Of a stretch of DNA of 64,000 bases, positions 2,262 through 33,922 are shown piece after piece. Each line of letters begins with the position of its first letter. Position 1 is the stretch's first letter. This DNA comes from Fibrobacterota bacterium (lineage in GTDB: Bacteria > Fibrobacterota > Fibrobacteria > UBA5070): assembly GCA_029557215.1 (NCBI GenBank), contig JAKPQQ010000309.1, positions 55,927 through 119,926 of the forward strand, written 5' to 3'. The notes beneath the pieces are model-generated. The model ran no database searches. It was not told where the DNA came from and worked only from the letters and a program-made list of their open reading frames with translations. The translations under genes and the position numbers were made by a program.

Positions 2262-2291
2262 CTTGCCGCGGCCGCGATCAGCGGCCAGTTT

Positions 2292-3032: not shown

Positions 3033-3400
3033 GCGACGAGGCGCGACCCAGGATCGAGCTTCCGGAATCCGACGAAGACCTCCTGGAAGAATGCGAAGCC
3101 CAGACCTACCGGTCTTCGGGGCCGGGCGGGCAGAACGTGAACAAGACGGAATCCGCCGTGAGGTTGCGCCACGAACCCACGGGGATCGTGGTCCAGTGCC
3201 AGGAAGAACGATCGCAGCACCTGAACAAGCTCAAGGCGCTCGCCAAACTGCGCGAGAAGGTGGAGCAGCTCAACCATCGGGATCCCACGCGGATCCCCAC
3301 CAAGCCCACCGGGGGATCCAAGCGCCGCGGAAGGATCGCCAAACGCAGGCATTCCCAGCGCAAACGGCAACGGGGCGATCGGAGCTGGCTCGAGGATTGA
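3029..3400 (+). CDS. arfB: alternative ribosome-rescue factor ArfB (peptidyl-tRNA hydrolase, RF-1 domain)
   Basis: GTG start overlaps the cobB stop (GTGA). The GGQ motif sits in [20 protein letters not shown], followed by a basic C-terminal tail ([18 protein letters not shown]) typical of ArfB/YaeJ. Confidence 0.85.
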
Positions 3401-7595: not shown

Positions 7596-10064
7596 TCAGC
7601 CCAGCTCGATCACGACCTTGGCGACCGAACCCTTGGGCAGGATGGGCAGGACGTTTCCTGCCACTTCCTTGCCGTCCACGGTGGCCTTCACCACGCCCTT
7701 GCAGACGCCCTTGGGGTTCTTGACCTCGATCTCGTAGGTCGCGCCGCGGAACTTGCGGGTCGCCTTGAATCCGGGCCAGGCCTTGGGGATGCAAGGATCG
7801 ACCATCAGGCCGGCAAAATCCGGCTTGATGCCGAAGATGCCCTGCGACACGACCACGAAGGTCCAGGCCGCGGTGCCGGTGAGCCACGAGTTCTTGGCTT
7901 CGCCAAAGCACGGAGCGTCCTTGCCGGCGGTCATCTGCGCGTAGACGTAGGGTTCCGAACGGTAGGTGTCGATCTGCTCTTCCTTCTTGGAGGGGCAGAT
8001 GGAGTGGTAGTACTCCAGCGCGCGGTCGCCCTCGCCCAGCAAGCACCAGCCCAGGTGGATCCAGGTGTTGTTGTGCGAGAAGATGCCGGCGTTTTCCTTC
8101 ACTCCGGGCGGGTAGCTGGTCACTTCGCCGTACTCGGTGTGGTAGGTGCTGTAGGCGGGCTGCTGGAGCACGATGCCGTTCTTGGTGTACAGGTGCTTGT
8201 GCACGGATTCCATGGCCAGGCGCGCGCGGCCGTTGTCGGCACCGGCACCGCCCAGGACGCACCAGCCCTGGCTCTCGATGAAGATCTTGCCTTCGGGATT
8301 GGTCTTGGAGCCGATCACCTTGCCCTGGTAGTCGTAGGCGCGGGTGTACCATTCACCGTCCCAGGTCACGCTTTCCACGATGTCCATCATGGTCTTGCGG
8401 TCGGCGGCGATGCGATCGGCGTCGGCCTTGCGACCCAGGAAGGTGTACAGGCTGCTCAGCTCGCGGGCGGCGTAGAGGAACAGGCCCGCGATCATCACCG
8501 ACTCGGCCTTCGATCCGCCCACGTCGCCGGCGGTCTGGAACGACTCGTTGGGCTCGGTGGAGTGGCAGTTCAGGTTCAGGCAGTCGTTCCAGTCGGCGTG
8601 TCCGATCAGGGGCAGCCCTTGCGGGCCACGCATCTTCATGGTGTACGCGATGGAAGTTTCCAGGTGGTGCAGGAGGTTTTCCTTCTCCTTGTCGGATCCG
8701 TACTTCTTGTCGGCGTAGCCGCAAGGAGCTTCCAGGATGGACGCGTCGCCCGATTCCTTGATGTAGGAAACGGTCGAGAGCACCAGCCACAGGTGGTCGT
8801 CGTAGAAGTCGCCGCCGACTTCGGCGTTGCCCTTCTTGGTCAGCGGCTGGTACTGGTGGTAGCAGGTGCCGTCGGAGAGCTGGGTGGCGGCGATGTCCAG
8901 GATGCGCTCGCGGGCGCGTCCGTGGATCATGTGCACGAAGCCCAGGAGATCCTGGTTGGAGTCGCGGAAGCCCATGCCGCGGCCGATTCCCGTCTCGTAC
9001 ATGGAGGCCGAACGGCTCATGTTGAAGGTGGCCATGCACTGGTACTGGTTCCAGGTGTTGGCCATGCGGGTGGCGTGGGGGTCGGGGCTTTCCACCTGGA
9101 AGTTGGAAAGGTTCTCGTCCCAGTAGGCCTTGAGGTTCGCGAAGGCCTGTTCCACGGCGCCGGGCTTGGAGTACTTCTCCACGATCGCCTTGCCCACGGT
9201 CTTGTTGATCACGTACGGGGCCACGAACTTGTCGCCGGTGAAGTTCACCAGCGTGTGGTCCACGTAGGCCAGAATGAAGGCGAAGGTCTCGGACTGGCCG
9301 GGCTGGAGTTCCAGCGAGACTTCGTGCGAGCCGATCGGGTTCCAGCCGAATGCCTTGGAGTTGGAGGCCTTGCCGGAAAACGGCACCTTGGCTTCGTGCA
9401 GGCCTTCGTGGATGCCCACGAACGCGTCGCGCGAAGTGTCGTAGCCCGAAATGTCGCGGGTGCAGGCGAACAGCGTGTAGTGGTTGCGGCGCTCGCGGTA
9501 TTCGGTCTTGTGGTAGATCGCGTTGCCTTCGATCTCCACTTCGCCGATGCTGTACGTGCGCTGGTAGTTGGTCATGTCGTTGAGCGCTTCGAAGAAGCAG
9601 AACTCCTGGTAGGAGTAGAGCTTGGGCGACTTCGCGACCTTGCCGGTGTTCTTGACGGTGACCTGCCACAGCTCCAGGTTCTCGCCCGGGGGCACGCACA
9701 TCTTCTGGGTGACTTCCACTCCGTCCTTTTCGGCGACGATGGTCGTGTAGCCCAGGCCGTGGCGGCACTCGTACTTGTCGAGTTTCGCCTTGGTGGGCTT
9801 CCAGCCCGGATTCCAGACCGACCCGCCGTCGTTGACGTACAAGTAACGGCCACCCAGGTCGTAGGGCACGTTGTTGTAGCGGTAGCGGGTCAGGCGACGG
9901 AGCTTGGCGTCCTTCCAGAAGGTGTAGCCGCCGGCCGTGTTGGTGCAAAGGCCGAAGAACTCGTCTTGTCCCAGGTAGTTCAGCCAGGGCAGCGGAGTGT
10001 CGGGGCGGGTGATGACATATTCGCGCGCTGCGTCGTCAAAGCGGCCGTACGGATTCTGGGACAC
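7596..10064 (-). CDS. GH94 disaccharide phosphorylase (cellobiose/cellodextrin/chitobiose phosphorylase type)
   Basis: GTG at 10064 lies 6 nt after a perfect AAGGAG. The N-terminus VSQNPYGRFDDAAREYVITRPDTPLPWLNYLG and the catalytic region GMGFRDSNQD match GH94 phosphorylases. The 822-aa length fits. The ORF track extends 48 codons further upstream without support. Confidence 0.9.
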   Translation of the reverse strand: MSQNPYGRFDDAAREYVITRPDTPLPWLNYLGQDEFFGLCTNTAGGYTFWKDAKLRRLTRYRYNNVPYDLGGRYLYVNDGGSVWNPGWKPTKAKLDKYECRHGLGYTTIVAEKDGVEVTQKMCVPPGENLELWQVTVKNTGKVAKSPKLYSYQEFCFFEALNDMTNYQRTYSIGEVEIEGNAIYHKTEYRERRNHYTLFACTRDISGYDTSRDAFVGIHEGLHEAKVPFSGKASNSKAFGWNPIGSHEVSLELQPGQSETFAFILAYVDHTLVNFTGDKFVAPYVINKTVGKAIVEKYSKPGAVEQAFANLKAYWDENLSNFQVESPDPHATRMANTWNQYQCMATFNMSRSASMYETGIGRGMGFRDSNQDLLGFVHMIHGRARERILDIAATQLSDGTCYHQYQPLTKKGNAEVGGDFYDDHLWLVLSTVSYIKESGDASILEAPCGYADKKYGSDKEKENLLHHLETSIAYTMKMRGPQGLPLIGHADWNDCLNLNCHSTEPNESFQTAGDVGGSKAESVMIAGLFLYAARELSSLYTFLGRKADADRIAADRKTMMDIVESVTWDGEWYTRAYDYQGKVIGSKTNPEGKIFIESQGWCVLGGAGADNGRARLAMESVHKHLYTKNGIVLQQPAYSTYHTEYGEVTSYPPGVKENAGIFSHNNTWIHLGWCLLGEGDRALEYYHSICPSKKEEQIDTYRSEPYVYAQMTAGKDAPCFGEAKNSWLTGTAAWTFVVVSQGIFGIKPDFAGLMVDPCIPKAWPGFKATRKFRGATYEIEVKNPKGVCKGVVKATVDGKEVAGNVLPILPKGSVAKVVIELG

Positions 10065-10289
10065 CAGAGTGCTCCTTGGAAAAGAAAGATGGTGGAGTCT
10101 GAGAACGAGGAAAATGCATACGCGGGAGCGAACTTCCCAGACGGACAGATGCTGCCCGGCCCCACCGCCTGGCCGCAAGCGACAAGGTGCGTCGGAAAAC
10201 AAGTTCAACGCCTCTGTCGGAATTCCCCCCTGTCCGGAAGGGGGTGGGCCAGTCTAGCTTTGAACGACCAACTGCCCTATGAGGTGCAA

Positions 10290-11708
10290 ATGATCCGGAA
10301 ATTGCCCTTCCTGGCTCTCGCGGCCGTTGCGGGCGTCTTCGCGCTCGCTGGTTGCAAATCCAAGCGCGGCCAAGACGGCGAGGCCGGAACCGGCACCGTG
10401 CTGCGTTTTTGGGCCATGCCCAACACGTCCAAGCCCCAGGCCGACCTCGAAAACATCCTCAAACGGTTCGAATCGCAGAACCCCGACATCGACGTCCAGG
10501 TGGAGATCCTGGACTGGGGCAACGCCCTGGATCGCATCACCAAGGCGGCCAATTCGGGCATCGGCCCCGACGTGTTCCAGATCGGGACCACCTACACGGC
10601 TTCCATCACCGACCTCGGCAGCCTTTCCTCCCTGGACGCCACCGTGCAGGCGGTGGGGGGCGACACCGTGTTCGTGCCGGCCGTGCGGTCGTACATGAAG
10701 CCCATCTACGCCGACAGCATCACGTCCATGCCGTGGTTCGTGGACGTGCGCCCGGTCTACTACCGCACCGACGTCTTCGCGAAGGTCGGGCTCGATCCCG
10801 ATGCCGTTTTCGCGAGCTGGGACGCCTACCGCGCGGGGCTTGCCAGGATCCGCGACGCCAAGCTTTCCATCGATGGACAGAAAATGGAAGCGGTCGGCCT
10901 GGCCGGCAAGAACGACTGGAACGTGGTCCACAACATCTATCCGTGGATCGTGGGCAACGGCGGAGACATCGTCAATGCGCTGGGCGACAGCGTGCTGCTG
11001 GACGACGAACGTTCGGTGCAGGGCGTCCTCACGTTCCTCCGGCTGATCCGCGAGGGCCTGAGCCCCCGTTCGTACCTGGAAAAGAGCACCGCCCAGGTTT
11101 CCGCCGAATTCGACCAGGGCCGCATCGCCACCTGGCAGGAAACGACCTCCAAGCTGGTGTACCTGGAACGCCCCGCCGAGATGGGCGGAGTGGGTGCCAG
11201 CACCGCGGCCAAGAACTTCGCCTCGGCCTTGCCGCCCGCGGGGCCCGCAGGCCGGAAATTGTTCATCGGTGGATCCAACCTGGCCATCTTCAAGTCGTCC
11301 AAGAGCCAGGAAGCCGCCAGAAAGCTCGTGACGTTCCTGACCACCGACACCACCGCGGTCCTGGAGTTCAGCAAGGCTTCGGGCATGGCTCCGGCCCTGA
11401 TCAAGGTCTACGAATCCGACTACTTCCAGGGCAACGCCAACCGCAAGCTCTACAAGGAGCTGGCCATGGCGGGCAAGGCCTACCCGGCCGTCCCGTACTG
11501 GGGCGCGCTGGAGACCTCCATCCTGAACACCCGTTTTGGCAACATCTTCGACATCGCCGGCGAAGTGGAAGGCCCTTTCAGCGAAGACGCCGTCCGCAAG
11601 GAGCTGCAGGAAGGCGCCAAGCAGGCCCGCGAGCTGATCGAAAGCCAGCTCAAGCCGATGCCGCAGTACCTCCAGAAGCTCGACCGCCTGCGCCAGCAGG
11701 GCGGCTAA
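10290..11708 (+). CDS. ABC-transporter carbohydrate-binding lipoprotein (extracellular solute-binding protein family 1)
   Basis: ATG at 10290 after GAGGTG. Lipobox MIRKLPFLALAAVAGVFALAGC. LRFWAMPN, DVQVEILDWGNALDRI and GIGPDVFQIGTTY are typical of sugar SBPs. The rest of the 1387-aa track ORF is antisense to GH94. Confidence 0.85.
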   Translation: MIRKLPFLALAAVAGVFALAGCKSKRGQDGEAGTGTVLRFWAMPNTSKPQADLENILKRFESQNPDIDVQVEILDWGNALDRITKAANSGIGPDVFQIGTTYTASITDLGSLSSLDATVQAVGGDTVFVPAVRSYMKPIYADSITSMPWFVDVRPVYYRTDVFAKVGLDPDAVFASWDAYRAGLARIRDAKLSIDGQKMEAVGLAGKNDWNVVHNIYPWIVGNGGDIVNALGDSVLLDDERSVQGVLTFLRLIREGLSPRSYLEKSTAQVSAEFDQGRIATWQETTSKLVYLERPAEMGGVGASTAAKNFASALPPAGPAGRKLFIGGSNLAIFKSSKSQEAARKLVTFLTTDTTAVLEFSKASGMAPALIKVYESDYFQGNANRKLYKELAMAGKAYPAVPYWGALETSILNTRFGNIFDIAGEVEGPFSEDAVRKELQEGAKQARELIESQLKPMPQYLQKLDRLRQQGG

Positions 11709-11970
11709 CGGGGATGCAAGCGTGCGGTGTTTGTCGGCACATCGGCGCCGATCTGGCTGCATGCTCCTGCCTGGAACGTCTGGAGTGCTCCAACCTGGAC
11801 CATTTTTTTGGAACGTCGTGCAGGAATGACCGAGTGGTGACATATTCCTGACTTCGTACGGGTGCCCAGGGTGTGCCACGTGTTGCCGAATTTTGTAAGG
11901 CGATGCGTGGTTCCACCGTTGCAACCGCGCAAGGGGAGTTCTTATTCTTCGAGGCCACAGTAGGTCAGAT

Positions 11971-12002
11971 CGTGTCTGGCCGGCCGAAGGGTGTCCGGAC
12001 AC
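11971..12002. promoter_or_regulatory. candidate operator: perfect 12-bp palindrome GTGTCCGGACAC plus a related upstream half-site
   Basis: GTGTCCGGACAC at 11991-12002 equals its own reverse complement. GTGTCTGG at 11972-11979 repeats the half-site. Both lie about 100-125 nt upstream of the 12098 start, inside a 389-nt non-coding gap. Confidence 0.3.
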
Positions 12003-12097
12003 GGTGGTGAACCTGCCGAGACCTCCTTGCGACACAGTGCTGGAAGTTTTATCAAGAGATCGATCGCGTTCATGCACGATTCACTCCGGAGAACCAC

Positions 12098-14722
12098 GTG
12101 ATGGCAAAACCCATCTCCTCCCGAACCGCAATCCTGGCAGTGCTTGCCGCGATGCCTGGTTTGGTCCACTCGACGCCGGCTCCTGTCGGCCAGGAGGCCC
12201 AATCGGCCGCCCTGGACAGCATCGAGCAGAACCTCGACCCGGTGGAAGCCCAGGCGCGTCGATCCCTCTTCGGCGGCGGCTCCAAGCCCGTGTCGTTTTC
12301 CGGCGAGGCATACCTCCGGTTCATCGGAACGAGCTACGACAAGCATCCGTCATGGCTTATCCACGATGTGACCGAGACGAAGAACAGCAGTGCGACAATG
12401 CGCGTGGGCATGGTCGCCGCACCGCACCGCAACCTTCGGCTGTGGTCCAAGATCGGCTTCAACCACCAGATGCTGGGCAACAACAAGCCGGCGAGCAATG
12501 CGAAAGACGAAAGCTATCAGGGTGCGCCTCGGATTGGAAGCTTGGACCTCCGGGACATCATCGTCTACGAGGACATGTCCGCAGGTTTGATCGCCAAAAC
12601 GGGCCCTGTCACGACGCAGACCCGCATCGGCGGAATCCTTTGGACCGAAGCATCGCCGCTGTCGATCTGGAAGGGCCAGAACCGCATGTTCGGCTGGGAT
12701 TACGTGCCCTACGAACTCGAACAATCCAGTGCGCAGTACTACGAATACGCGACCATCAAGGGTGAAAAGACGGGGCGCGCAGCATGGAACAAAAAACCGT
12801 TCCAAGGCTTGCAGTTCGAGTCCATCGAGATGCCCTGGAACTTGTATTACAACGTGACCTACGGATCGTTCGACATGGGGCAAAAGTATCAGCCCTACAT
12901 GATCAACACGAATACGACCAACGGTTTGATGAATACGAACACCTATGGCAAGGAGGGCGGAAACAACCAAGATGCGCCGGGACCCCGAACCTACGGAAAC
13001 AAAGGCATCGGCTCTGGCGACACCTACAGAAAGACCTTGCTTTTGCGTTTGGCGAAGTCTGAGCTCCCGCTTGGGATCACCGCTGGCCTGAACTACGTGG
13101 GGTTCAACGTTGACCCAGACTATCCAAAACAGTTTTGGAACATGTGGTCTGGCACGGGCGAAAAAGATGCTTTTCCGGTGGCTGCTTGGCATTATCGCGA
13201 TACCGCCGATAAGGTCGGCGTCTACAACTCCAACTACTTCCTGAACTTCCAGGTGGTCACGGCCGATTTCCGCAGGAATCTGCCGGGTGGTTTGCAGTTC
13301 CATGTCGACATCGCCGCCAGCAAGGCCGACACCAACTTCTTCAAGGTAGAGCCGAGCGGTGCGACGGCTTCGTGGAAGCGCTATGGCATTTCGGATTCCG
13401 TGACGATCACCAACGCGCTTCGGGGCGATGTGCTGGGTAGCCGCAGCACGGGATGGACTCCGGCCGTCTATGGCATGATGAACTACCCACTTTCCTTGGC
13501 AGGCAAGAACTACGACTTCATGCTCCAGGGTATCTACGCTCCCAAGGAGTTCTATTCGGGTGGCTCCTTTGTGCTTCCCGCCGATGTGTTCTTCCCGTAC
13601 GAATCGAATCTGACCGGTGCAGGCAAATTTGCAGGGGCCGACAACGGGACTCCTTACGCATTGAACATGACGGGCGCCAACCTGACGGCCAAGATCCCGG
13701 TAGCGAATGGCCATGCCAAGATCAACTTCGGTTTCCACACCCAGCTGGAAAAGGGCAGCGACTTCCTGTTCCTTCCTTGGCGATTGAATGGAACGGCGTT
13801 CAACTACACCTTGAACGCTTCGACGAGCCGCTACGATGGCGCGACCCTGACCGATGCGTACATGCAAGGCAATCCTGCGACAACAACAGCATCCACTGGA
13901 AACGGTGGAACGAACGGCATCTATCGTCAGATCGCGCGAATCGGGAACGAGTACTATCAGTACAGAAATCCAAAGGCGCGCCTCACCGAGGTTGTTGATC
14001 GGCGCAACCCGTATGCTCCTCAGCCTGGTTTGGCCGGTGGCATCCGCAACGATTACTTGTCCACCTTCGAAGGCTTTGGGGCCTACCAATTGCGCAATGA
14101 CTCTGCGACTCGCACCCAGGACATCAAGGCCATCCAGACCATGCTGGAAACGGGGGTGATGCCGCAGAACCAGAAGTCCACCCAGAACCTCAGTCTGGAT
14201 GTTTCGAAGGACATCGCTCGCTTCTGGAACGGCAAGAACTCGGTGCACTTGGCGTTCTATGGCGCCTTGAACTCTGTGACCAAGAGTGGTTCGCCGATCC
14301 CAACCTTATCCACCAGCGACGACGTGTACTTGAGTTCCTACCACCTTCGTTTCGAGCCGGTGGTGCAGTTGACCCAGAAGCTTTATTTGATTGGCATGCT
14401 GGGGCATGAAACCTGGAAATCAGCCTATGGCGTGGCGGTGATCGATTCTGCCAACGGGCGGGCTCCAGAAACGCATATGGAATACTACATGGCGGGATCC
14501 CGTGTAAACACGGCCAATTGGTATGCCGCCCCGATCGACTACTCCGATTGGGCCTATGGCATCGGATTCGATTGGGACATCGCTCCGAGAGTGGGATTGC
14601 ACATGCGTGTGCAAAAATTCACCCACGAAGACAAAGGCATTTCCAAAAACGTCCCCACCGTCGCGGGGAAAAACGATTACGAGGCGTGGTTCCTGCACGC
14701 CGAAACCAAGATGTGGTTCTGA
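12098..14722 (+). CDS. very large outer-membrane beta-barrel protein (874 aa), family unknown
   Basis: ATGATG start after GGAG. Signal peptide MMAKPISSRTAILAVLAAMPGLVHS. Gly/Tyr/Asn/Trp-rich strand-like sequence throughout. C-terminal beta-signal ...AWFLHAETKMWF. No TonB-box or plug-like N-terminus that I can recognise. Confidence 0.65.
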   Translation: MMAKPISSRTAILAVLAAMPGLVHSTPAPVGQEAQSAALDSIEQNLDPVEAQARRSLFGGGSKPVSFSGEAYLRFIGTSYDKHPSWLIHDVTETKNSSATMRVGMVAAPHRNLRLWSKIGFNHQMLGNNKPASNAKDESYQGAPRIGSLDLRDIIVYEDMSAGLIAKTGPVTTQTRIGGILWTEASPLSIWKGQNRMFGWDYVPYELEQSSAQYYEYATIKGEKTGRAAWNKKPFQGLQFESIEMPWNLYYNVTYGSFDMGQKYQPYMINTNTTNGLMNTNTYGKEGGNNQDAPGPRTYGNKGIGSGDTYRKTLLLRLAKSELPLGITAGLNYVGFNVDPDYPKQFWNMWSGTGEKDAFPVAAWHYRDTADKVGVYNSNYFLNFQVVTADFRRNLPGGLQFHVDIAASKADTNFFKVEPSGATASWKRYGISDSVTITNALRGDVLGSRSTGWTPAVYGMMNYPLSLAGKNYDFMLQGIYAPKEFYSGGSFVLPADVFFPYESNLTGAGKFAGADNGTPYALNMTGANLTAKIPVANGHAKINFGFHTQLEKGSDFLFLPWRLNGTAFNYTLNASTSRYDGATLTDAYMQGNPATTTASTGNGGTNGIYRQIARIGNEYYQYRNPKARLTEVVDRRNPYAPQPGLAGGIRNDYLSTFEGFGAYQLRNDSATRTQDIKAIQTMLETGVMPQNQKSTQNLSLDVSKDIARFWNGKNSVHLAFYGALNSVTKSGSPIPTLSTSDDVYLSSYHLRFEPVVQLTQKLYLIGMLGHETWKSAYGVAVIDSANGRAPETHMEYYMAGSRVNTANWYAAPIDYSDWAYGIGFDWDIAPRVGLHMRVQKFTHEDKGISKNVPTVAGKNDYEAWFLHAETKMWF

Positions 14723-14752
14723 TCCATGGTCGCCGAAACAAAGGGAACACGC

Positions 14753-17062
14753 ATGAACACCAAGGCCCTCGCCGTTGCTGCAAGTCTTTGGGTCCCGATG
14801 GTCGCCTCGGCGGCCACCGAAGGAACCGTCACCGATCGTCAGGAAGCGCTCTCCGCGCAGCTGGAAGAAATCCTGGCCAAGACCGGTATTTCCATTGGAG
14901 GAGCATTCCGCGGAGAAGTCGGATCGTCCAAACTGGGCGGCAACTACGCTTACGCCGAACGCCGCGATGACGAGACCATCGGGTTTACCTCGGTGGATTT
15001 CGATCTCCGCGCTCGTCCCAACACGGCCACCACTGCGCGCGCCGTATTCCGGATGCACCTGGATCACGCGAACTTCTTCGGATCCCCCTATTCGCCGCTG
15101 GCAACCCGCTGGCTTTCGATCGACGGCGGGTTTTTCGACATGGTCTACTACCACTTTGGCAACATGCAAGCCAAGTGGTCGCCGCTCATGATTGGCGCCA
15201 CCGAACCCGGGTTCTTGTACACTCCTCGCATTTTCGCTCAGCAGCAGAAGCAGGCGATGGACGAACGTTTCATCGGCGGAGGGGTGCGAAACCTGCAGGG
15301 CATGAACCTGGGGTTGCGCGCGGCGGTTCCGCAACTGGCGATCGACTCGTTCGATGTTTCTGTGCTGGCTGCCAAGCTGCTTAGTGCGGCGACGATCGCG
15401 GATCCCTACTCGATGTTCGTTTCGAGAGCAAATCTTGGCGGTGACGCACTCACGGGCGCTCCGGATTCGCTGGCGAACTTCGATCGCTGGGCGCTGGGAG
15501 CACGTGGAAACGTGACCTTCCTGAAGGGTGTCACCCTGGGAGCCAGTGCGCTGAACATCAAGGATCTTCGTTCCACCTACGGTGCAATGGGGCCGACAAG
15601 TCAGGTGATGAAGTATCGATATTTCCAAGAAGATACGGTGATCGCTGGCGTGCCGAGCTTGAAGAGAGCGATGGATTCTACCGAGGTGGTCGGCGAGACC
15701 CCTCCTGAGGTCCTTCGCGATTCCATCATCCAAAACGGATTGGTCATCGGAGGTGTTGTCGGAATCGATGTGGCAAGACTCCTAGGCAACGACAATCTGA
15801 TTGCCGGGCTCAATGTGGACCTGGGACGTTCTTCTTGGGATCGTTTCCTTGCTCGCGGCATGGATGTCGCCGGAACCAAAGTGGATTCGGTCAGTGCCGC
15901 CGGTGGCAGACTTCGCAGGCGTTTTTGGGTCGACACCGGGTCTTTCAAGCCGATCTACGAAACGGTCAACGGTCTGGCTGTGAACGCGACGCTCGCTGGT
16001 GGCTGGAAGGCCGAAGGCTGGACTGCCAAGGTCCGTGCAGGGTACATCTTGACGGATTCCGCATTCCGTTCCGACCTGGCCCAGAGCCCGGTCTTCTACT
16101 CCTCGCTCGGGCGCGTGTTCAACACCGACCAAGATTCGGTGGGAAGGCTCGGGAAGTACAACACCTTCGATGCGATGTACCATCAGGTCCACCGCTTCGT
16201 CGCGGAAGACAAGAACGAGTACGCCAAGAGCCCCTACGACAAGATCGCCTACTCCAACTACGCCGCGGGCAGCGTGAACCCTGCTCTCACCGATTGGCTG
16301 TTGGGCATCAAGAGCGTCGCCAAGACGAAGGCGAACAACCAGAGGGTCGTCGACTCCATGACGGCGATCCTTGCGAGCGGCTCGGCGACAAGGGCGGATT
16401 CCACCCGCTTGACCACCGAGAAGAAAGCATTGATCACCTCGAACCAGAATCTGTACATGGCGTCCTTGGAAGGAACCGTTTGGGATCGCGACATCCAGCT
16501 GGTTCTACCGGTGGGTGAGGCTTCCGCCAACCGCGTTGGCCCCAAGTTCGGTCTGGATTTCGACCTGATGCAGGGTGGATTGGAAGTCAAGGTCGATGGC
16601 TACATGCTGCAGGAAGCCAAGGGAACCATCCTGGATTCGGCAAATCAGCTTGTCGCCGAGAAGGCCAAGTTCCAGCAGGTCCAGGCAGGACTGCGTACTC
16701 GTATTGACCGGTTCATCACCGGATGGGACAAGCCGATCGAGCTGTCGGGTTCCGTCGGTCTTTCCACTGCCAAGGGTGGTACGGCTCTGAACTACCAGTC
16801 CACCGTGATCAACGCCGGCTTGTACGCCGGGGTCATCAAGCGCCTCGCGGTGCTGGGTGGTTACCAGCTGATCGACGGCAAGGACAAGGCGTTCTTCGTG
16901 GATCGCAAGCAGTCGAACATGGCTGGTGGACTTGAATTCAAGGTCCAGGAAGGCGCTTACCTGTTGGGTATGTACAACCTGGTCAAGACCGAGTTCCCGA
17001 ACGCTCCCGAATACAACTTCGATCAGACCATCTGGTCCACCAAGATTTCGGTCTCGTTCTAA
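14753..17062 (+). CDS. very large outer-membrane beta-barrel protein (769 aa), distant paralogue of the preceding gene
   Basis: ATG at 14753 gives MNTKALAVAASLWVPMVASA. It starts 30 nt after the previous stop. The N-terminal layout is similar: an acidic helix, then GISIGGAFRGEV (compare KPVSFSGEAYLRF). The C-terminus is ...IWSTKISVSF. Confidence 0.65.
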   Translation: MNTKALAVAASLWVPMVASAATEGTVTDRQEALSAQLEEILAKTGISIGGAFRGEVGSSKLGGNYAYAERRDDETIGFTSVDFDLRARPNTATTARAVFRMHLDHANFFGSPYSPLATRWLSIDGGFFDMVYYHFGNMQAKWSPLMIGATEPGFLYTPRIFAQQQKQAMDERFIGGGVRNLQGMNLGLRAAVPQLAIDSFDVSVLAAKLLSAATIADPYSMFVSRANLGGDALTGAPDSLANFDRWALGARGNVTFLKGVTLGASALNIKDLRSTYGAMGPTSQVMKYRYFQEDTVIAGVPSLKRAMDSTEVVGETPPEVLRDSIIQNGLVIGGVVGIDVARLLGNDNLIAGLNVDLGRSSWDRFLARGMDVAGTKVDSVSAAGGRLRRRFWVDTGSFKPIYETVNGLAVNATLAGGWKAEGWTAKVRAGYILTDSAFRSDLAQSPVFYSSLGRVFNTDQDSVGRLGKYNTFDAMYHQVHRFVAEDKNEYAKSPYDKIAYSNYAAGSVNPALTDWLLGIKSVAKTKANNQRVVDSMTAILASGSATRADSTRLTTEKKALITSNQNLYMASLEGTVWDRDIQLVLPVGEASANRVGPKFGLDFDLMQGGLEVKVDGYMLQEAKGTILDSANQLVAEKAKFQQVQAGLRTRIDRFITGWDKPIELSGSVGLSTAKGGTALNYQSTVINAGLYAGVIKRLAVLGGYQLIDGKDKAFFVDRKQSNMAGGLEFKVQEGAYLLGMYNLVKTEFPNAPEYNFDQTIWSTKISVSF

Positions 17063-17089
17063 TCAACCCAGACGCAGGAGAAATACCAA

Positions 17090-20000
17090 ATGCGTAAAAC
17101 CACTTCCTTGGCCGCGATGGCGGCCCTGGTGGGGCTCGGGTTGAGCGGCTGCTTGCAGCCCATCCCGAACCAGTCGGCCGATCTGAATGCCGGCAAAGGT
17201 GTCGCTGGCAAGGTTTCCGGAGTTTCCGACAAATCCTACCCCGTCTACACCTTCTACGACGAAGACTTCCAGCAGGGCGGATTCACGTTCGTCTATGGCG
17301 GATCCACCAAGATGACGCAGCAGGAAGGTGCCGGTGCCGAAGGCTCCGAATACTTCCTGAAAGCCAATCTGGACGTTCGTGACTATTCCGGCGTGGCCGT
17401 CTGCCTCTGGAACATGCAGTTCGACCTGACCCCGTACCTCGCCAACGGCGCCCTGGTGTTCCAGGCGCGTTCCAAGAACGGCGGCGAAAAGGTCGTCGTC
17501 GGTCTGGGCGACGACGAAAAATCAGACGGCTGGAAGGCGGTGGTGCGCAAGCCCCTGGAAGCCTACGGCACCCTCAAGGCGGGCGAGTGGACCACCTTCG
17601 TGATCCCTCTGCGCGACTTCGGCAAGCGTGGCGTGGCGTGGGACGCATCCAAGGGGATCGAACTCCCGATGCCGTTCCAGTGGGACAATGTGCAGGAATT
17701 CCGTCTGCTCACGAACAAGGGCGAAAACCCCGAAGTCGAAGTCGAATTGGACAACATCCAGATCTACGCCGACGCGGTGGGTGAAAGCTCCGAAGCGCCG
17801 ACCGACGACTGGCTCGATCTCGACAAGAACTCCGACGGTCCGACCCCCGAGCAGATGAAGCTCGACGACGAGATCGCCGCGACGTTCTTCGAGAACGACT
17901 ACCCGCAGGGTGGGTTCGCCTACGGCTACGGTGGCAAGACGGTCCAGCGGATCCTGGAGTGCACCACTCCGGGGAACACCGGCGTCTGGGCCAACTATTT
18001 CGACAACGACTGGTCGGGATTGAATCTGTCGGTGGGAGCCGACAAGTACGTGGACGTCACGCCGTTCCGCAAGACCGGCAGCCTCACGTTCTGGATCAAG
18101 GCCGGTCCCAACGCCAAGAAGTTCATGGTCGGCCTGATGGACAACCAGGGCAACGACAAGAAGGTCCAGACCAAGGTCATGGCCGATGGCTACGCCGTCC
18201 TCAAGGAAGGCGAATGGGTCCAGGTGCGCGTGCCCCTCAAGGCGTTCATCGACGATGGCGTTTATTGGGATGCCAAGGCCGCCCGCGAAATCTCGAGCAA
18301 GATGGACTGGTCCAAGATCCAGGAAATCCGCATCTCGATCGGCAAGGACGAAAACAAGCCCGGTGCCGGCAAGCCGGTGATCTTCTACTTGGACCAGATC
18401 CAGCTGACCAAGACGTCCAACGGGATCTTCGATCCGGACGCCTATTGGGACGCGTTCAAGTCCGACGCACCCGACATGCTCGTCACCGACTTCACCAAGT
18501 GGGGCGACAAGTGGGAAACCGGTCACGGATCGTCGGCCGACATCTCGGCGTCGATCGTACCGCTGCCCAAGGGTGCTCCAGCCTTCGTGAAGGGGCAGGC
18601 GCTCAAGATCGACTTCAAGCCGGGCGACTGGTACGATGCGTTCATCAAGATGGAGAACGCGCCTGGAATCCAGGCTGATTGGAGCAAGCACTACGCGGTG
18701 AGCTTCTGGCTCTATACGGAAAAGCCGTACCAGTCCTTGGACTTCACGATCCAGGACAAGGGCAAGGAAATGTTCCTGACCAAGGTCGGCGACGCTCGCG
18801 GTTGGCACCAGGTCCTGGTTCCGTTCCGCAACATCACCAAGTTCCCGTACTACCAGCCGCCCGATGCCGTGCAGAACAACCTGCTCGATCTGGACGGCAT
18901 CTTCCAGTTCGGCCTCAAGCCGGGCGGTGAAGTTCCCGGCACGTTCTACATGGCCAACATCCAGCTCACGAACCTGCGCCAGATCCAGAAGGTCAAGGGG
19001 CCGGCCAGCCTGCCCGCGATCTTCAAGGGCAATGCGGCCAAGACCATCCAGAAGGTTCCTGACATCTACGGCATCAACGTGGGTCTCTGGGCGCCCGAAC
19101 TGATGGACGACGCTTCCGTGGAGCTCCAGAAGCCCATGAACCTGGGTGTCGTGCGTTATCCCGGCGGTCTTCGTTCCGACGAAGAAGACTGGGAGAAGAC
19201 GCTGCGCGACAAGGACTTCCATGTCGACACCGACGAGTTCCTGGATTGGTGCGACAAGGTCAATTGCAAGCCCATGTTCACCGCCAACATCGGCGACGGC
19301 TCGCCCGAGCGCGCCGCCCGGTGGGTGGAATACGTGAACAAGAAGCGCTCCGGCCCGCGTGTCCAGTACTGGGAGCTCGGCAACGAGGTCTACGGCAACT
19401 GGCACAAGTACTACGAGCAGTGGGGCAAGGACGGCGGCGCCGCCTACGCCAAGATGTGCCGCAAGTACATCGAGGCCATGAAAGCCGTGGATCCCGACAT
19501 CAAGATCACCGTGGTCTGGATGCTGGGCGGCAACTGGAACAAGACCACGTTCGAAGAACTGGCCGACATCGTGGATGGCGTGAACGTCCACCACTATGCG
19601 CAGGCCACCGGCTCGGAAAGCGATCAGGGATTGCTCGCGGTGTCGCAGGAATCCGATGTCCTGATGAAGGACGTTCGCCACCAGGTCGACCAGTACGGCG
19701 TGAAGGGCAAGAAGTACGAGATCTGGCTCACGGAGTGGAACTCGGTCGACTTCAACCCCGGTCCGCAGATCCTGCAGCACGTGAACGCCTTGTTCGTCGC
19801 CGACTACCTGGGCCACCTGGCCGAAGCGCCGATCGAGATCGCCAACCTGTGGGCCCTGTACAACGGCCGCGACAAGCGCATGGGCGACTACGGCGTGCTG
19901 GCGGCTTCGTCCGACCCGCAGGGCCTGAACGCCCGTCGTCCCACCTACTGGGCGATGCGCCTGATGGCCACGGCGCTCAACGGCACCTTGCTGGAAGGCA

Positions 20001-20299
20001 AGAGCGACCAGGAGCCTCTGCAGTCCTGGATGTCCAAGCGCGCCGACGGGAAGCTCTCGATCGTGTTCGTGAACAAGAACCCGGACACCGAGTACAAGAC
20101 CACGCTCAAGGTGCCCGGACTCAAGGGCGAGGCGATCGTGGAAGTGCTGACGGCGGAGAATTCGGGCGGCCTCAAGTCGAACGAAGCCACCGGCGAAGTC
20201 CACTCGCAGGAAGGCCCCAAGCCGGAGAAGATGTCCCTGAAGGACGGCTCCGTGATCTCGGTGCCCAAGCACTCGATCGTCACGATCCGGTTCCAGTAA
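17090..20299 (+). CDS. surface lipoprotein: three tandem CBM-like beta-sandwich modules plus a clan GH-A (TIM-barrel) glycoside hydrolase
   Basis: Lipobox MRKTTSLAAMAALVGLGLSGC. Three roughly 190-aa internal repeats share D-F/Y-x-x-GGF-x-Y-G-Y/G-GG ... GEW-x-x-V/F-x-I/V-PL-x-x-F ... W-x-x-V/I-QE-x-R (CBM11/CIA30-like by eye). The catalytic part has VVRYPGG, YWELGNEVYGNW (acid/base) and IWLTEWN (nucleophile). The GH family is not assignable by eye (GH51/GH39/GH30-like). Confidence 0.8.
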   Translation: MRKTTSLAAMAALVGLGLSGCLQPIPNQSADLNAGKGVAGKVSGVSDKSYPVYTFYDEDFQQGGFTFVYGGSTKMTQQEGAGAEGSEYFLKANLDVRDYSGVAVCLWNMQFDLTPYLANGALVFQARSKNGGEKVVVGLGDDEKSDGWKAVVRKPLEAYGTLKAGEWTTFVIPLRDFGKRGVAWDASKGIELPMPFQWDNVQEFRLLTNKGENPEVEVELDNIQIYADAVGESSEAPTDDWLDLDKNSDGPTPEQMKLDDEIAATFFENDYPQGGFAYGYGGKTVQRILECTTPGNTGVWANYFDNDWSGLNLSVGADKYVDVTPFRKTGSLTFWIKAGPNAKKFMVGLMDNQGNDKKVQTKVMADGYAVLKEGEWVQVRVPLKAFIDDGVYWDAKAAREISSKMDWSKIQEIRISIGKDENKPGAGKPVIFYLDQIQLTKTSNGIFDPDAYWDAFKSDAPDMLVTDFTKWGDKWETGHGSSADISASIVPLPKGAPAFVKGQALKIDFKPGDWYDAFIKMENAPGIQADWSKHYAVSFWLYTEKPYQSLDFTIQDKGKEMFLTKVGDARGWHQVLVPFRNITKFPYYQPPDAVQNNLLDLDGIFQFGLKPGGEVPGTFYMANIQLTNLRQIQKVKGPASLPAIFKGNAAKTIQKVPDIYGINVGLWAPELMDDASVELQKPMNLGVVRYPGGLRSDEEDWEKTLRDKDFHVDTDEFLDWCDKVNCKPMFTANIGDGSPERAARWVEYVNKKRSGPRVQYWELGNEVYGNWHKYYEQWGKDGGAAYAKMCRKYIEAMKAVDPDIKITVVWMLGGNWNKTTFEELADIVDGVNVHHYAQATGSESDQGLLAVSQESDVLMKDVRHQVDQYGVKGKKYEIWLTEWNSVDFNPGPQILQHVNALFVADYLGHLAEAPIEIANLWALYNGRDKRMGDYGVLAASSDPQGLNARRPTYWAMRLMATALNGTLLEGKSDQEPLQSWMSKRADGKLSIVFVNKNPDTEYKTTLKVPGLKGEAIVEVLTAENSGGLKSNEATGEVHSQEGPKPEKMSLKDGSVISVPKHSIVTIRFQ

Positions 20300-20330
20300 G
20301 TCAATTAACGTCAAATTGACGCAATCTGAC
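20300..20330. promoter_or_regulatory. 31-bp nested dyad symmetry: GTCA-N6-CGTCAA-a-TTGACG-N6-TGAC
   Basis: The sequence gtcaattaacgtcaaattgacgcaatctgac begins immediately after the glycosidase stop. The inner arms CGTCAA/TTGACG (20309-20321) are perfect, and the outer GTCA/TGAC arms are 10 bp further out on each side. Confidence 0.3.
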
Positions 20331-20365
20331 GCCTCGCGGGAGAAACATCCCGCGGGGCGTTTTTG
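20331..20365 (+). terminator. rho-independent terminator of the barrel-barrel-glycosidase operon
   Basis: GCCTCGCGGGA, loop GAAACA, TCCCGCGGGGC (one mismatch), followed by GTTTTT. Confidence 0.65.
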
Positions 20366-20435
20366 CTTGCACCTGCAGGGGCTTAATTGTTACGCTTCGA
20401 AGAGGAGCGCGCAACCGCCCCCACCGGAGGAACGA

Positions 20436-22958
20436 ATGCCAAGGGAAAAGAAGACCGCCGAAAAGACCGCGATCCCCGCCACGAAGGCCCAGGTGCTGGA
20501 AGACGTGGAGGATCTGGTCGGAACCGACGCGGACAGCATCCGCAAGGCCTTCAACTACCATCTGCGACTGTCGCTGGCCCGCGACCGCTACACCGCGACG
20601 GAAAACGACAGGTACTTGTCGCTGGCCTGGGCCGTGCGCGACCGCCTGGTGGAAAACTGGATCTCCACCCAGCAGAGCTACTACAACCAGGACGTCAAGC
20701 GGGTCTACTACTTCTCGCTGGAATTCCTCATGGGCCGCGCCTTGGGCAACTCCACGCTCAACCTGGGGCTGGAGGAATCCGTCAAGGAGGCGCTGGACCA
20801 GCTGGCGCTTTCCTACGAGGACCTTCGCGAGATGGAGCAGGACGCGGGCCTGGGCAACGGCGGTCTGGGACGGCTCGCCGCATGCTTCCTGGATTCGTGC
20901 GCCACCTTGCGCCTGCCCGCCTACGGCTGCGGCATCCGCTACGAGTACGGCATCTTCAAACAGAAGATCGTCGACGGCTACCAGCTGGAAGAACCAGACA
21001 ACTGGCTGTACCTGTCCAATCCTTGGGAGATCCCGCGCCCCGAGAACGCCGTTCCCGTGAACTTCTACGGCCGCGTGGAAAGCCGCACCGACCGCAACGG
21101 CCGCCCCGTGTTCCAGTGGGTGGACACCGAGAAGGTGATGGCGCTTCCGTTCGACACGCCGGTCCCCGGTTACAAGAACGGCGTGGTGAACAACCTGCGC
21201 CTGTGGTCGGCCAAGAGCACCAACGATTTCGATCTCCAGTTCTTCAACGACGGCGACTACGTGCGCGCCTCGATCGCCAAGAACGATTCCGAGACGATCT
21301 CCAAGGTTCTGTACCCCAACGACAGCGTGACGGCCGGACAGGAACTGCGCCTCAAGCAGCAGTATTTCTTCTGCGCGGCGGGCATCCACGACGTGATCCG
21401 TAGGCACCTCAAGCACAACGCGTCCTTGAAGAACCTGGCCGACAAGGCCGTGGTGCAGCTCAACGACACGCACCCCACCGTCGCGATCCCCGAACTCATG
21501 CGCATCCTGCTGGACGACCACGGGTTCGGCTGGGACGAGGCCTGGGCGATCACGACCAAGATCTTCGCCTACACCAACCACACGCTGCTTCCCGAAGCGC
21601 TGGAGAAGTGGCCCGTGGAGCTGTTCGGCAAGCTCCTGCCGCGGCACCTGCAGATCATCTACGAGATCAACTTCAGGTTCCTGCGCCAGGTGGCGTTCCG
21701 CTACCCCGGCGACACCGAGAAGCTGCGGCGCATGAGCATCATCGACGAGGACGGCGTGCGCAAGATCCGCATGGCGCACCTGTGCGTGGTGGGTTCTCAC
21801 AGCGTCAACGGCGTGGCCGCGCTGCACTCCGAGCTGCTCAAGAAGCACGTGCTGCACGAGTTCTACGAATTCTTCCCGACCAAGTTCAACAACAAGACCA
21901 ACGGCATCACCCCGCGCCGCTGGCTGCTCAAGTGCAACGCGGCCGCTTCGAACCTGATCTCCGAGAAGATCGGCGAGGAGTGGCACACCGATCTTTCCAA
22001 GCTCAAGAAGCTCGAGAAGTTCGCGACCGACAAGGAGTTCCAGAAGGCCTGGCGTGCCACCAAGCGCGCGGCCAAGGAAAAGCTCGCCGAATACGTGCTC
22101 AAGGAGCACGGGGTGCGCCTGAACTGCGACGCCTTGTTCGACGTGCAGATCAAGCGTCTGCACGAATACAAGCGCCAGCTCCTGAACCTGCTGCACGTGA
22201 TCCACCTCTACCAGAAGATCAAGGCCAACCCCAAGGGGGATTACACCCCCCGCGTGGTGCTGTTCGGCGCCAAGGCGGCTCCCGGCTACGCGCAGGCCAA
22301 GCTCATCATCAAGCTCATCAACTCGGTGGCGACGGTGGTGAACAACGACCCCGACGTGGGCGACAGGCTCAAGGTCCTGTTCCTGGCCAACTACCGCGTG
22401 AGCCTTGCCGAAAAGATCATTCCCGCCGCCGACCTGTCGGAACAGATTTCGACCGCGGGTCTGGAGGCGTCGGGCACCGGCAACATGAAGCTGTCGCTCA
22501 ACGGCGCGCTCACCATCGGCACCTGGGACGGGGCGAACATCGAGATCGCCGAAGAAGTGGGCGAAGAGAACTGCATCATGTTCGGACTCAAGACCGAAGA
22601 GGTGCATGCGCTCCAGGCCAAGGGTTACAAGCCCAACGACTTCATCGAAGCCGATGCCGATCTCAAGAGCGTGATCGAGCTGATCGAAAGCGGATTCTTC
22701 GCTCCCGAAAAGCACGACCTGTTCAAGCCGATCACCGACCATCTGCGCCACAAGGACACCTACCTGCTGTGCGCCGACTTCGCCGAATACATCCGCGCCC
22801 AGAACGAGGCGGCCGCGGGGTACAAGAAGGAAGCCGAATGGACGAAGCGTTCGATTTTGAACACGGCCCGCATGGGCAAGTTCAGCTCCGACCGCACGAT
22901 CCAGCAGTACGCCGACGAAATCTGGGGCGTGAAGCCGGTGGGCCGCAAGGCGGGATAG
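20436..22958 (+). CDS. glgP: glycogen/alpha-glucan phosphorylase (GT35)
   Basis: ATG at 20436 after GGAGG. Full-length similarity to GlgP/MalP, including LGNGGLGRLAACFLDS and the PLP-lysine region EASGTGNMKLSLNGALTIGTWDGANIEI. 840 aa. Confidence 0.92.
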   Translation: MPREKKTAEKTAIPATKAQVLEDVEDLVGTDADSIRKAFNYHLRLSLARDRYTATENDRYLSLAWAVRDRLVENWISTQQSYYNQDVKRVYYFSLEFLMGRALGNSTLNLGLEESVKEALDQLALSYEDLREMEQDAGLGNGGLGRLAACFLDSCATLRLPAYGCGIRYEYGIFKQKIVDGYQLEEPDNWLYLSNPWEIPRPENAVPVNFYGRVESRTDRNGRPVFQWVDTEKVMALPFDTPVPGYKNGVVNNLRLWSAKSTNDFDLQFFNDGDYVRASIAKNDSETISKVLYPNDSVTAGQELRLKQQYFFCAAGIHDVIRRHLKHNASLKNLADKAVVQLNDTHPTVAIPELMRILLDDHGFGWDEAWAITTKIFAYTNHTLLPEALEKWPVELFGKLLPRHLQIIYEINFRFLRQVAFRYPGDTEKLRRMSIIDEDGVRKIRMAHLCVVGSHSVNGVAALHSELLKKHVLHEFYEFFPTKFNNKTNGITPRRWLLKCNAAASNLISEKIGEEWHTDLSKLKKLEKFATDKEFQKAWRATKRAAKEKLAEYVLKEHGVRLNCDALFDVQIKRLHEYKRQLLNLLHVIHLYQKIKANPKGDYTPRVVLFGAKAAPGYAQAKLIIKLINSVATVVNNDPDVGDRLKVLFLANYRVSLAEKIIPAADLSEQISTAGLEASGTGNMKLSLNGALTIGTWDGANIEIAEEVGEENCIMFGLKTEEVHALQAKGYKPNDFIEADADLKSVIELIESGFFAPEKHDLFKPITDHLRHKDTYLLCADFAEYIRAQNEAAAGYKKEAEWTKRSILNTARMGKFSSDRTIQQYADEIWGVKPVGRKAG

Positions 22959-22999
22959 CCCGGAAATCGACCGCCCGCGCAAGCGGGCGACGACATGTG

Positions 23000-23036
23000 A
23001 ACGCCCGGTTCCGGCAAGGACCGGGCGTTTTGTTTT
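23000..23036 (+). terminator. rho-independent terminator of glgP
   Basis: AACGCCCGG (23000-23008) pairs with CCGGGCGTT (23021-23029), followed by TTTGTTTT. Confidence 0.75.
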
Positions 23037-30909: not shown

Positions 30910-31106
30910 CGCGGACTCCATATCGGGTTAGTGTGCAACGGAGGGATCAGAACTGGAGTTGCGCGAGTACATCTTCCTTAATGCACAAGCCGTGCCAAAC
31001 GATTCTTGCTCCGGCAGGGCTGGAATTTGGACAAGAATGCAGAGGGGGGCTTGCGCCGGACGCGGATTGCATGGTAGACTCGATTCCTTGTAGCTTGAAC
31101 ACCCAT

Positions 31107-33699: not shown

Positions 33700-33922
33700 G
33701 GATGGAACGATAAAACGCCATGGTGGAAACTGGCAATTGGCTTTTCGCGGATTGGCTGGAATTCTCCAGGTGGCCGTCGGGATGATCGAGGGGCAACCGG
33801 GGGTGTGGCCATTGGGGGTAAGCCCCTGTCGCTTCTTGGTTTATGTTGTAGGTTTCACGTTCCCGTGCCGAGATGCCCCGGATAGGTTCTGGTGTTCTGT
33901 TCTCTCGAAAGGGAGTCGATTC

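Follow-up and report, generated by a model that had tools for sequence, protein, structure and literature searches.

We describe a probable locus for cellulose and cellodextrin utilisation, found in an uncultured bacterium of high GC content from the class Fibrobacteria and carried on a 64,000-nucleotide stretch of a Fibrobacterota genome of the UBA5070 lineage (GenBank assembly GCA_029557215.1, contig JAKPQQ010000309.1, positions 55,927 to 119,926), referred to here as the window. At its core are three adjacent genes, encoding two very large predicted outer-membrane beta-barrels, which we call B1 and B2, and a lipoprotein that joins three carbohydrate-binding modules (CBM) to a glycoside hydrolase (GH) domain in the order CBM30-CBM30-CBM11-GH51. 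Judged by sequence, the locus appears to be a glycan-utilisation system that draws on two outer-membrane protein families not described before. It is also a strong and hitherto unreported candidate for the passage of cellulose fragments across the outer membrane. The interpretation we favour, with modest confidence, is a TonB-independent outer-membrane module for glucan capture and import, resembling the SusC/SusD (SusCD) systems in its working but unrelated to them.

To our knowledge, Fibrobacter and its relatives have no cellulosomes, processive cellulases or SusCD systems, and for decades there has been debate over how they break down crystalline cellulose. Published models leave open the route by which cellodextrins cross the outer membrane of Fibrobacter, or invoke TonB systems, unnamed “beta-barrel proteins” or the entry of chains into the periplasm (PMC6851124, PMC4668043). 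A preliminary description of this DNA, made from the sequence alone, had proposed that the architecture was new, and the full-text literature that we searched holds no description of B1, B2 or the paired-barrel arrangement.

Results

The barrel pair and its lipoprotein are conserved as a cassette

All 196 B1 homologues retrieved are hypothetical proteins of Fibrobacterota, the named ones deriving from metagenome-assembled genomes (MAGs) of Fibrobacteria, Chitinivibrionales and Chitinispirillaceae. Scanning 185,579 species genomes by pattern returned 65 loci, distributed over Fibrobacteria and Chitinivibrionia and spanning a GC content of 36-66%; three of them bear labels from outside the phylum, namely Thermodesulfovibrionales (L044), Draconibacterium orientale (L056) and an unclassified “bacterium” (L060), and may be mis-binned. 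In a profile search of 1.84 billion cluster representatives, 175 B1-family proteins were found at E ≤ 1e-3, which makes the family a small one. The cassette is also held by a cultured organism, the soda-lake cellulotroph strain ANBcel5, as QA601_03265 and QA601_03260 (PMC11700989).

Synteny was assessed in 68 Fibrobacterota loci, with B1 and B2 identified by hidden Markov models (HMMs) and their neighbours by single-sequence phmmer searches. B2 lies directly 3' of B1 in every locus with room for it (63/63), and a CBM30/CBM11(-GH51) gene lies directly 3' of B2 in 56/56, such that the order of these three genes holds throughout the phylum. The four loci that diverge most (L052, L056, L059 and L069) have a third gene whose alignment to the window protein is limited to residues ~22-634 and which encodes CBM30-CBM30-CBM11 alone, with a lipobox in one of the four proteins and an apparently ordinary signal peptide in the other three. 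The absence of GH51 from these loci indicates that the glucan-binding module, and not the catalytic domain, is the constant partner of the barrels. As the preliminary description had anticipated, there is no SusD-like gene: Pfam returned no SusD-family match in the six proteins of the locus or in 20 other open reading frames (ORFs) of the window.

B1 and B2 are predicted plug-less barrels of two separate families

Neither window protein matches Pfam, NCBIfam or the sequences of the Protein Data Bank (PDB). AlphaFold2 (AF2) models were built on alignments of 101 (B1) and 59 (B2) homologues and reached a predicted local distance difference test score (pLDDT) of 77 with a predicted template-modelling (TM) score of 0.82 for B1, and of 82 with 0.79 for B2. 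Both models lead from a signal peptide, which is also seen in the translations, through a short amphipathic N-terminal helix into a very large all-beta barrel of about 24-26 strands, as counted from the DSSP strings of the models. The helix, of ~20-30 residues, joins the first strand at residue 55 in one model and at residue 66 in the other, and because it passes straight into that strand, neither model contains a plug. The C-terminal phenylalanine is invariant in both families, and the endings reported in the preliminary description (...ETKMWF and ...KISVSF) are those of the window proteins.

Foldseek searches against the PDB returned 360 and 320 barrel matches at E ≤ 1e-3 for the two models, including MtrB, ushers, barrels of TonB-dependent transporters, AlgE, MOMP and chitoporin. 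Their TM scores were only 0.13-0.48, normalisation to the smaller target not raising them above 0.48, and the similarity to known barrels is thus generic. A Pfam scan of the 59 B2 relatives gave weak matches of 10 of them to the generic family OMP_b-brl (PF13505) and nothing besides, with no Plug or TonB_dep_Rec domain. Signal peptide, terminal phenylalanine, modelled barrel and PDB barrel matches are together the features of a generic outer-membrane beta-barrel; on these models, B1 and B2 are very probably large barrels of this kind, with a predicted location in the outer membrane.

More specific assignments were tried and set aside. TonB-dependent transporters, SusC among them, combine a plug and a TonB box with a 22-strand barrel; B1 and B2 have no Pfam or NCBIfam match to them and no plug in the AF2 models. 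LamB/maltoporin, OprB, ChiP and ScrY were rejected for want of any sequence match and because B1 and B2 are about twice as long, the Foldseek alignments to maltoporin, chitoporin and OprD-type porins (TMq 0.21-0.26) reflecting generic barrel likeness. For LptD, BamA, fimbrial ushers and MtrB, there was no HMM match, TMq did not exceed 0.36 and root mean square deviations were 12-36 Å. Accordingly, none of the families that the preliminary description had named as alternatives was matched by HMM or structure search, and its observation that a plug is missing stands.

The two barrels had also been described as paralogous, a claim that we do not uphold and regard as unproven. BLASTP of B1 against B2 gives E = 0.35, their HMMs do not cross-match, and hhalign, run in its default, local and global modes, aligns only the N-terminal ~60 columns (the signal peptide with the N-terminal helix and the first strand) at a probability of 15-21%, with the “SPL..W” motif common to both scoring 2%. 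What remains of the claim is a shared N-terminal helix layout, with no homology beyond those ~60 columns. By these profile comparisons, B1 and B2 are two separate unannotated families, outside every curated family.

Several non-strand segments are invariant across the phylum, including a 61-residue B1 loop (178-238) containing 4 W, 5 Y and 2 F, and B2 segments 120-215 and 445-510. These may be inward-facing functional loops, B1 183-233 being an example. B2 also carries a long hypervariable helical hairpin at residues 521-582 (numbered from the ORF opening at 14726).

The lipoprotein has the architecture of Cel51A

The preliminary description had recognised three CBM-like modules and a clan GH-A glycosidase in the lipoprotein, and these can now be named. 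The protein has the lipobox GLSGC, and Pfam detects CBM30 in two stretches (6.9e-20) and CBM11 (6.3e-15), followed by a GH51-like clan GH-A domain (GH51 structures, 3.4e-16; partial match to an NCBIfam arabinofuranosidase, 2.3e-14), in which GNE and TEW motifs, seen by eye, contain the candidate catalytic glutamates. This is the make-up of a Cel51A-type GH51 endoglucanase with CBM30 and CBM11. The same CBM30-CBM30-CBM11-GH51 order is found in Cel51A of Fibrobacter succinogenes S85 (EG2/EGF; FSU_0382, Fisuc_3111), which is of similar size (~118 kDa, compared with 1069 residues here) and likewise has a signal peptide and is associated with the cell envelope (PMC6851124, PMC4619616). Orthology between the two proteins is suggested by this architecture, by analogy with which the window enzyme would act as an endoglucanase rather than as an arabinofuranosidase.

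Cel51A is the top-expressed carbohydrate-active enzyme of S85, is constitutive, and has been located by other work at the outer membrane and on cellulose-bound vesicles (PMC6204037). Environmental Fibrobacterota of the UBA5070 group express, on cellulose, a GH51_3 enzyme of the same architecture (PMC11653725). None of the papers searched on S85 cel51A mentions adjacent barrels.

These properties bear on a periplasmic model of cellulose degradation, long proposed for Fibrobacter and Cytophaga and discussed as unresolved in PMC4668043. Applied to the present locus, it would have the barrels admit an intact cellulose chain, which a Cel51A-type lipoprotein anchored in the outer membrane and facing the periplasm would then cut. 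The barrels are very large and plug-less in the AF2 models, CBM30 and CBM11 are type B modules that bind single chains (PMC6851124), and Cel51A was statistically assigned to the periplasmic fraction of S85 (PMC4668043), all of which would suit such threading. Against it, Cel51A has been placed on the outer membrane and on vesicles attached to cellulose (PMC6204037), and the cassette encodes no energy source for pulling a chain; we consider threading decidedly improbable.

Two unrelated importers and several phosphorylases accompany the cassette

Upstream of the barrels, the window encodes a family-1 sugar-binding lipoprotein (SBP; SBP_bac_1, 1.1e-27; lipobox FALAGC), the closest solved relatives of which are 7c63, of the sugar-binding family (4e-80), and CbpB of Clostridium thermocellum (7x0i, 8e-75). 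Divergent from it lies a GH94 enzyme (Glyco_hydro_94, 4.5e-146; GH94 supersandwich, 1.4e-74) that aligns end-to-end (~811-842 residues) with the PDB cellobiose phosphorylases 3qde and 8ho7 at E = 0 and can be assigned to them; its real start is later than that of the longest ORF, probably near 10058, since the PDB alignment begins at query residue 54. This divergent pair had been reported in the preliminary description and is borne out by the Pfam and PDB matches and the LAGC of the lipobox.

Also in keeping with that description, the 64-kb window encodes no ATP-binding cassette (ABC) permease or ATPase, as judged from Pfam analysis of 20 further large ORFs and from tblastn, and tblastn of the permeases of four relatives against the window found no permease relics, leaving the SBP as the only part of a CUT1 importer present. 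The SBP is therefore an orphan within the window, as had been claimed. Relatives including L003, L004, L005 and L021 possess a full CUT1 set, with two permeases between SBP and B1, and those of L003 and L005 are kept in loci with a B1 only 50% identical to that of the window. Because relatives retain the permeases and the window's clade has the SBP only, the orphan state is, by this comparison, a lineage-specific loss and a derived condition, not a feature of the system; the SBP itself is intact and 99-100% identical between strains, despite the absence of permeases.

Importers were counted in the 47 loci with at least 4.5 kb of upstream sequence, and 38 of these have a complete ABC importer upstream. 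A CUT1-type SBP1-permease-permease arrangement, often preceded by an ATPase, occurs in 10; in 28 the importer is of the Opp/Cbt type and is complete, with SBP5, two permeases and two ATPases; three loci, all from the window's clade, have the SBP only, and six have no importer in the available upstream sequence. The occurrence of two non-homologous importers beside the same outer-membrane triad is, in our view, the strongest argument that the triad may serve uptake. Downstream, one or two GH94 genes are present in 14 of 40 loci, and glgP likewise in 14 of 40. The link that the preliminary description drew between SBP-dependent import and phosphorolysis is thus supported by the importers of most relatives and by GH94, whereas glgP is probably a neighbour.

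Two GH94 genes stand in tandem after the triad in L014, L028, L031, L033, L037, L039, L061, L065, L066 and L068, which are loci of Chitinivibrionia type and low-GC loci with an Opp/Cbt-type (family-5 SBP) importer, not CUT1; such a pair may consist of a cellobiose phosphorylase and a cellodextrin phosphorylase.

Distant loci pair the barrels with other glycoside hydrolases

The B1 profile also matches distant proteins of 620-830 residues (E 1e-25 to 1e-6) over the conserved loop and the C-terminal barrel. That these might be B2 proteins was rejected by HMM cross-search. Five of their contexts were examined (L070-L074; GC 30-71%, one labelled as a Bacteroidales MAG), four of which contain genes of the type IX secretion system (T9SS; all but L073). 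In all five, the next gene belongs to the B2 family (E 7e-23 to 3e-33) and the third encodes a lipobox protein of 270-537 residues; of the lipobox proteins, three are homologous to one another and form an unannotated family, and one is CIA30/CBM11-like. One distant B1 carries an N-terminal CBM4_9.

Glycoside hydrolase genes follow the triad in four of the five loci: GH2; GH3 and GH16 with LacI; CBM30-GH26-CBM9 with a major facilitator superfamily (MFS) sugar transporter; and GH3-PA14 with a periplasmic binding protein and an ABC ATPase. A LacI regulator or an MFS or ABC transporter is therefore present in three of the five. In the fifth locus, L074, gene calling on the 8.8-kb contig gave no glycoside hydrolase. 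With triads standing beside such varied glycoside hydrolases, the barrel pair and its binding lipoprotein behave as a reusable module similar to a polysaccharide utilisation locus (PUL), of which the window would be the cellulose version. The distant B1-like and B2-like proteins of L073 (623-5196) both show, by eye, an N-terminal segment of the “Y..L.D.AKAG(L/V)I” type, which might be a cell-wall-binding motif similar to those of S-layer homology domains.

The same gene order could be produced by a device for exporting, displaying or anchoring the CBM/GH51 protein, with cellodextrins entering by another route, by analogy with Slam translocons, whose genes adjoin those of their lipoprotein substrates, or with the MtrB sheath, which holds a surface lipoprotein partner. 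The CBM protein is indeed the only invariant partner of the barrels (56/56), a lipobox protein takes its place in the distant loci, importers and phosphorylases vary between loci, and MtrB is the top Foldseek match of B2, at a TM score of only 0.28-0.32. Yet B1 and B2 have no similarity in Pfam or NCBIfam to the Slam/DUF560, TpsB/POTRA or usher families, and three of the four most divergent loci have a CBM protein with an apparently ordinary signal peptide and no lipobox. Furthermore, two barrels of ~24-26 strands would be much machinery for display alone, and the sugar ABC importers of two unrelated types that adjoin the cassette in 38/47 loci, as well as the regulators and transporters of the distant loci, are what uptake predicts. 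We consider display unlikely as the role of the barrels.

The barrels vary as one block

The window and two related loci, L001 and L075, are 99-100% identical over the end of the GH94 gene, the SBP gene and the intergenic region, and the window and L001 also over the GH51 gene. By contrast, B1 and approximately the first 575 residues of B2 share only 50-80% DNA identity in all three pairs, with breakpoints at the start of B1 and inside the 3' part of B2, and at least three alleles (Table 1). Variation is concentrated in loops, at 124-156, 283-300, 370-385, 590-635, 665-690 and 790-805 of B1, and at 288-330, the long hairpins 365-420 and the helical hairpin 515-585 of B2. This pattern suggests surface exposure and diversifying selection, with B1 and B2 inherited as one block, and the block itself looks like the outcome of diversifying selection and recombination on surface loops. 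The barrels are possibly phage receptors, and the depth of their allele diversity suggests strong phage or predator pressure.

Composition also differs across the barrel genes, GC being 0.57-0.58 across 12098-17062 and 0.62-0.65 in the flanks, and the GC content of third codon positions (GC3) 0.73-0.74 in B1 and B2 against 0.87-0.89 in their neighbours. This compositional difference and the extreme diversity of the loops, which is typical of major porins and phage receptors, would fit B1 and B2 being abundant general or structural outer-membrane proteins, linked to cel51A by nothing more than shared high expression; in S85, Cel51A is constitutive and very highly expressed (PMC6204037). However, a lipobox protein follows all five distant B1-B2 pairs, four of these loci also hold glycoside hydrolases that differ in specificity, three have sugar transporters or regulators, and one relative is fused to CBM4_9. 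A family of 175 representatives that lies beside glycan genes in every context examined is hardly that of a general porin, and we find this explanation highly improbable.

The region upstream of B1 is ~97% identical to that of L001 and L002, while B1 itself is 68% identical, and the last ~100 nt of the 389-nt gap are conserved across the Fibrobacteria clade. Within them, TGAACC-N16-CGAC at 12008-12033, 65 nt 5' of B1, is the single match of this pattern in the window, and TGAAC, CGAC/CAAC and a CCGGAG ribosome-binding site (RBS) are invariant in up to 11 loci of the clade, including those with permeases before B1. The element resembles a promoter of the extracytoplasmic function sigma factor type and is a candidate offered as a lead only. 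The gap has no match in Rfam or to a sigma-70 promoter and no conserved RNA fold (RNAalifold -0.9 kcal/mol, no convincing covariation). L001, otherwise 99% like the window, has a ~975-bp insertion (2160-3135) between the SBP gene and the conserved B1 leader, encoding a 296-residue ORF with no Pfam match.

Layout of the locus and neighbouring genes

The features of the locus are given in Table 1. The gene lengths, the gap 5' of B1, the spacings of 30 nt between B1 and B2 and of 27 nt between B2 and the lipoprotein gene, and the terminator followed by glgP all agree with the preliminary description. A longer ORF for B2 opens at 14726, and ATG 14753 is preferred because of the homologue consensus MNTKALA and the upstream AAGGGAA, a likely RBS. 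For glgP, the hairpin after the stop codon of the lipoprotein gene places the start at ATG 20436, which has a GGAGG RBS, and not at TTG 20316. Standing behind the terminator, glgP forms a transcription unit of its own; it probably accompanies the barrel system as a conserved neighbour without being part of it.

Table 1. Positions of the locus features in the window, and of related features in other loci (numbered within each locus)
Feature	Position	Strand	Evidence
GH94 cellobiose phosphorylase, predicted cytoplasmic	7596..10208 (longest ORF)	-	Pfam and PDB matches
Family-1 (CUT1-type) sugar-binding lipoprotein, SBP	10290..11708	+	SBP_bac_1, lipobox
Non-coding gap, 389 nt, 5' of B1	11709..12097	+	
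B1, 874 aa, signal peptide, predicted plug-less outer-membrane beta-barrel	12098..14722	+	
B2, 769 aa, signal peptide, predicted large outer-membrane beta-barrel	14753..17062	+	
CBM30-CBM30-CBM11-GH51 lipoprotein, 1069 aa, Cel51A-type	17090..20299	+	
Intrinsic-terminator-like hairpin closing the B1-B2-GH51 unit	20328..20361	+	14-bp stem, 10 GC pairs, T-rich tail
glgP, alpha-glucan (glycogen) phosphorylase	20436..22958	+	Phosphorylase Pfam E = 0, TIGR02093
Second terminator, 3' of glgP	22999-23030		
Divergent allele block, window	12098-~16450		
Divergent allele block, L001	3613-~7985		
Divergent allele block, L075	3537-~7900		
CBM30-CBM30-CBM11-only gene (630-653 aa, no GH51), L052	14814-16706		
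CBM30-CBM30-CBM11-only gene (630-653 aa, no GH51), L056	12651-14543		
CBM30-CBM30-CBM11-only gene (630-653 aa, no GH51), L059	14840-16801		
CBM30-CBM30-CBM11-only gene (630-653 aa, no GH51), L069	12349-14292		

Immediately 3' of glgP are genes for a metallo-beta-lactamase-fold protein (23183-24055, minus strand) and a Cache/HAMP methyl-accepting chemotaxis protein (24159-26819, plus strand), an arrangement found alike in L001. Elsewhere, the window encodes on the plus strand a glycosyl transferase family 3-like protein (30933-32087), a glucodextranase domain B protein (33650-36391) and a 1961-residue protein that combines fibronectin type III domains with two cellulose-binding CBM3 modules (45968-51853), and on the minus strand a GH57 protein with DUF3536 (57533-60316). 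CBM3 is reportedly absent among the cellulases of F. succinogenes (PMC3079729).

Discussion

In the mechanism that we propose, the CBM/GH51 protein, held at the barrels, would capture and cut single beta-1,4-glucan chains, and the barrels, the channel of which may be lined by the conserved aromatic-rich inward loops (e.g., B1 183-233), would pass the resulting cellodextrins into the periplasm without TonB, maybe as a hetero-complex. The strict co-occurrence of B1 and B2, the joint inheritance of their alleles as a block and the likeness of their N-terminal helices make a heteromeric channel plausible. Once in the periplasm, the sugars would pass by way of the CbpB-like SBP to an ABC importer, encoded elsewhere in the window's lineage, and the cytoplasmic GH94 cellobiose phosphorylase would yield glucose-1-phosphate. 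The physical complex, its substrate and the direction of transport are what we infer from this arrangement of genes.

A close parallel in operon logic is that of the SusC/SusD PULs and utilisomes of Bacteroidota, which likewise combine barrel(s) with a lipoprotein that binds glycan at the surface, a surface endo-glycanase, an inner-membrane importer and intracellular enzymes, and the modularity is alike, as barrel pairs of the window type also meet different glycoside hydrolases. The components differ: two distinct barrels, having no plug, TonB box or TonB_dep_Rec match, replace the single SusC; the binding protein consists of CBM30/CBM11 beta-sandwiches, in contrast to the tetratricopeptide repeat-like SusD; and the inner-membrane step falls to an ABC importer, with breakdown by phosphorolysis.

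The locus also resembles the maltose system of Escherichia coli (LamB, MalE, MalFGK2, MalP), which also couples a CUT1-family SBP and importer to a cytoplasmic phosphorylase and crosses the outer membrane without TonB, as is proposed here, and the aromatic-rich B1 loop is reminiscent of the greasy slide of sugar porins. LamB, ChiP and OprB have, however, 16-18 strands and ~400-450 residues, compared with ~24-26 strands and 769-874 residues for B1 and B2; LamB-type porins show no sequence relation to these barrels, and here two barrels come with an obligatory CBM protein. The window SBP is a clear relative of the CbpB-type cellodextrin transporter of C. thermocellum, and the SBP-permease-permease order of its relatives is alike, the differences being a diderm host and the absence of permeases and an ATPase from the window.

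Several observations weigh against an import module. Transport by B1 and B2 is itself something we infer, and the strict coupling of the barrels to one lipoprotein fits display or anchoring equally well. The most conserved B1 loop (193-230) is modelled at pLDDT <50. Without permeases and ATPase in the window, the import chain is incomplete there. S85 proteomics assigned Cel51A to periplasm and outer-membrane fractions (PMC4668043), so the lipoprotein could sit on either side of the membrane. Moreover, no named F. succinogenes or F. intestinalis isolate occurs among the homologue matches, including those of a search seeded with a “Fibrobacter sp.” MAG, and one neighbour of cel51A in S85, FSU_0383, encodes a 27.6-kDa DsbA-like protein (PMC4619616), so S85 may lack the cassette.

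Taken beyond the window, the combination of B1, B2 and a glycan-binding (lipo)protein could be an unrecognised TonB-independent machine for glycan import across the outer membrane, non-homologous to SusCD, which would serve Fibrobacterota as the entry route for cellulose chains or cellodextrins and other T9SS-bearing bacteria for other glycans. This broader proposal is tentative, and we place it somewhat short of even chances.

For the biology of cellulose degradation in this phylum, the locus is a concrete candidate, with barrels locked to a Cel51A-type cellulose-binding enzyme in every locus examined across the phylum and mostly accompanied by genes for cellodextrin import and phosphorolysis. 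Should the module import glycans, it would represent a new class of outer-membrane nutrient transporter, and the prediction of PULs would extend beyond SusCD by searching for B1-B2 pairs. The presence of the cassette in the cultured cellulotroph ANBcel5 makes this hypothesis testable now.

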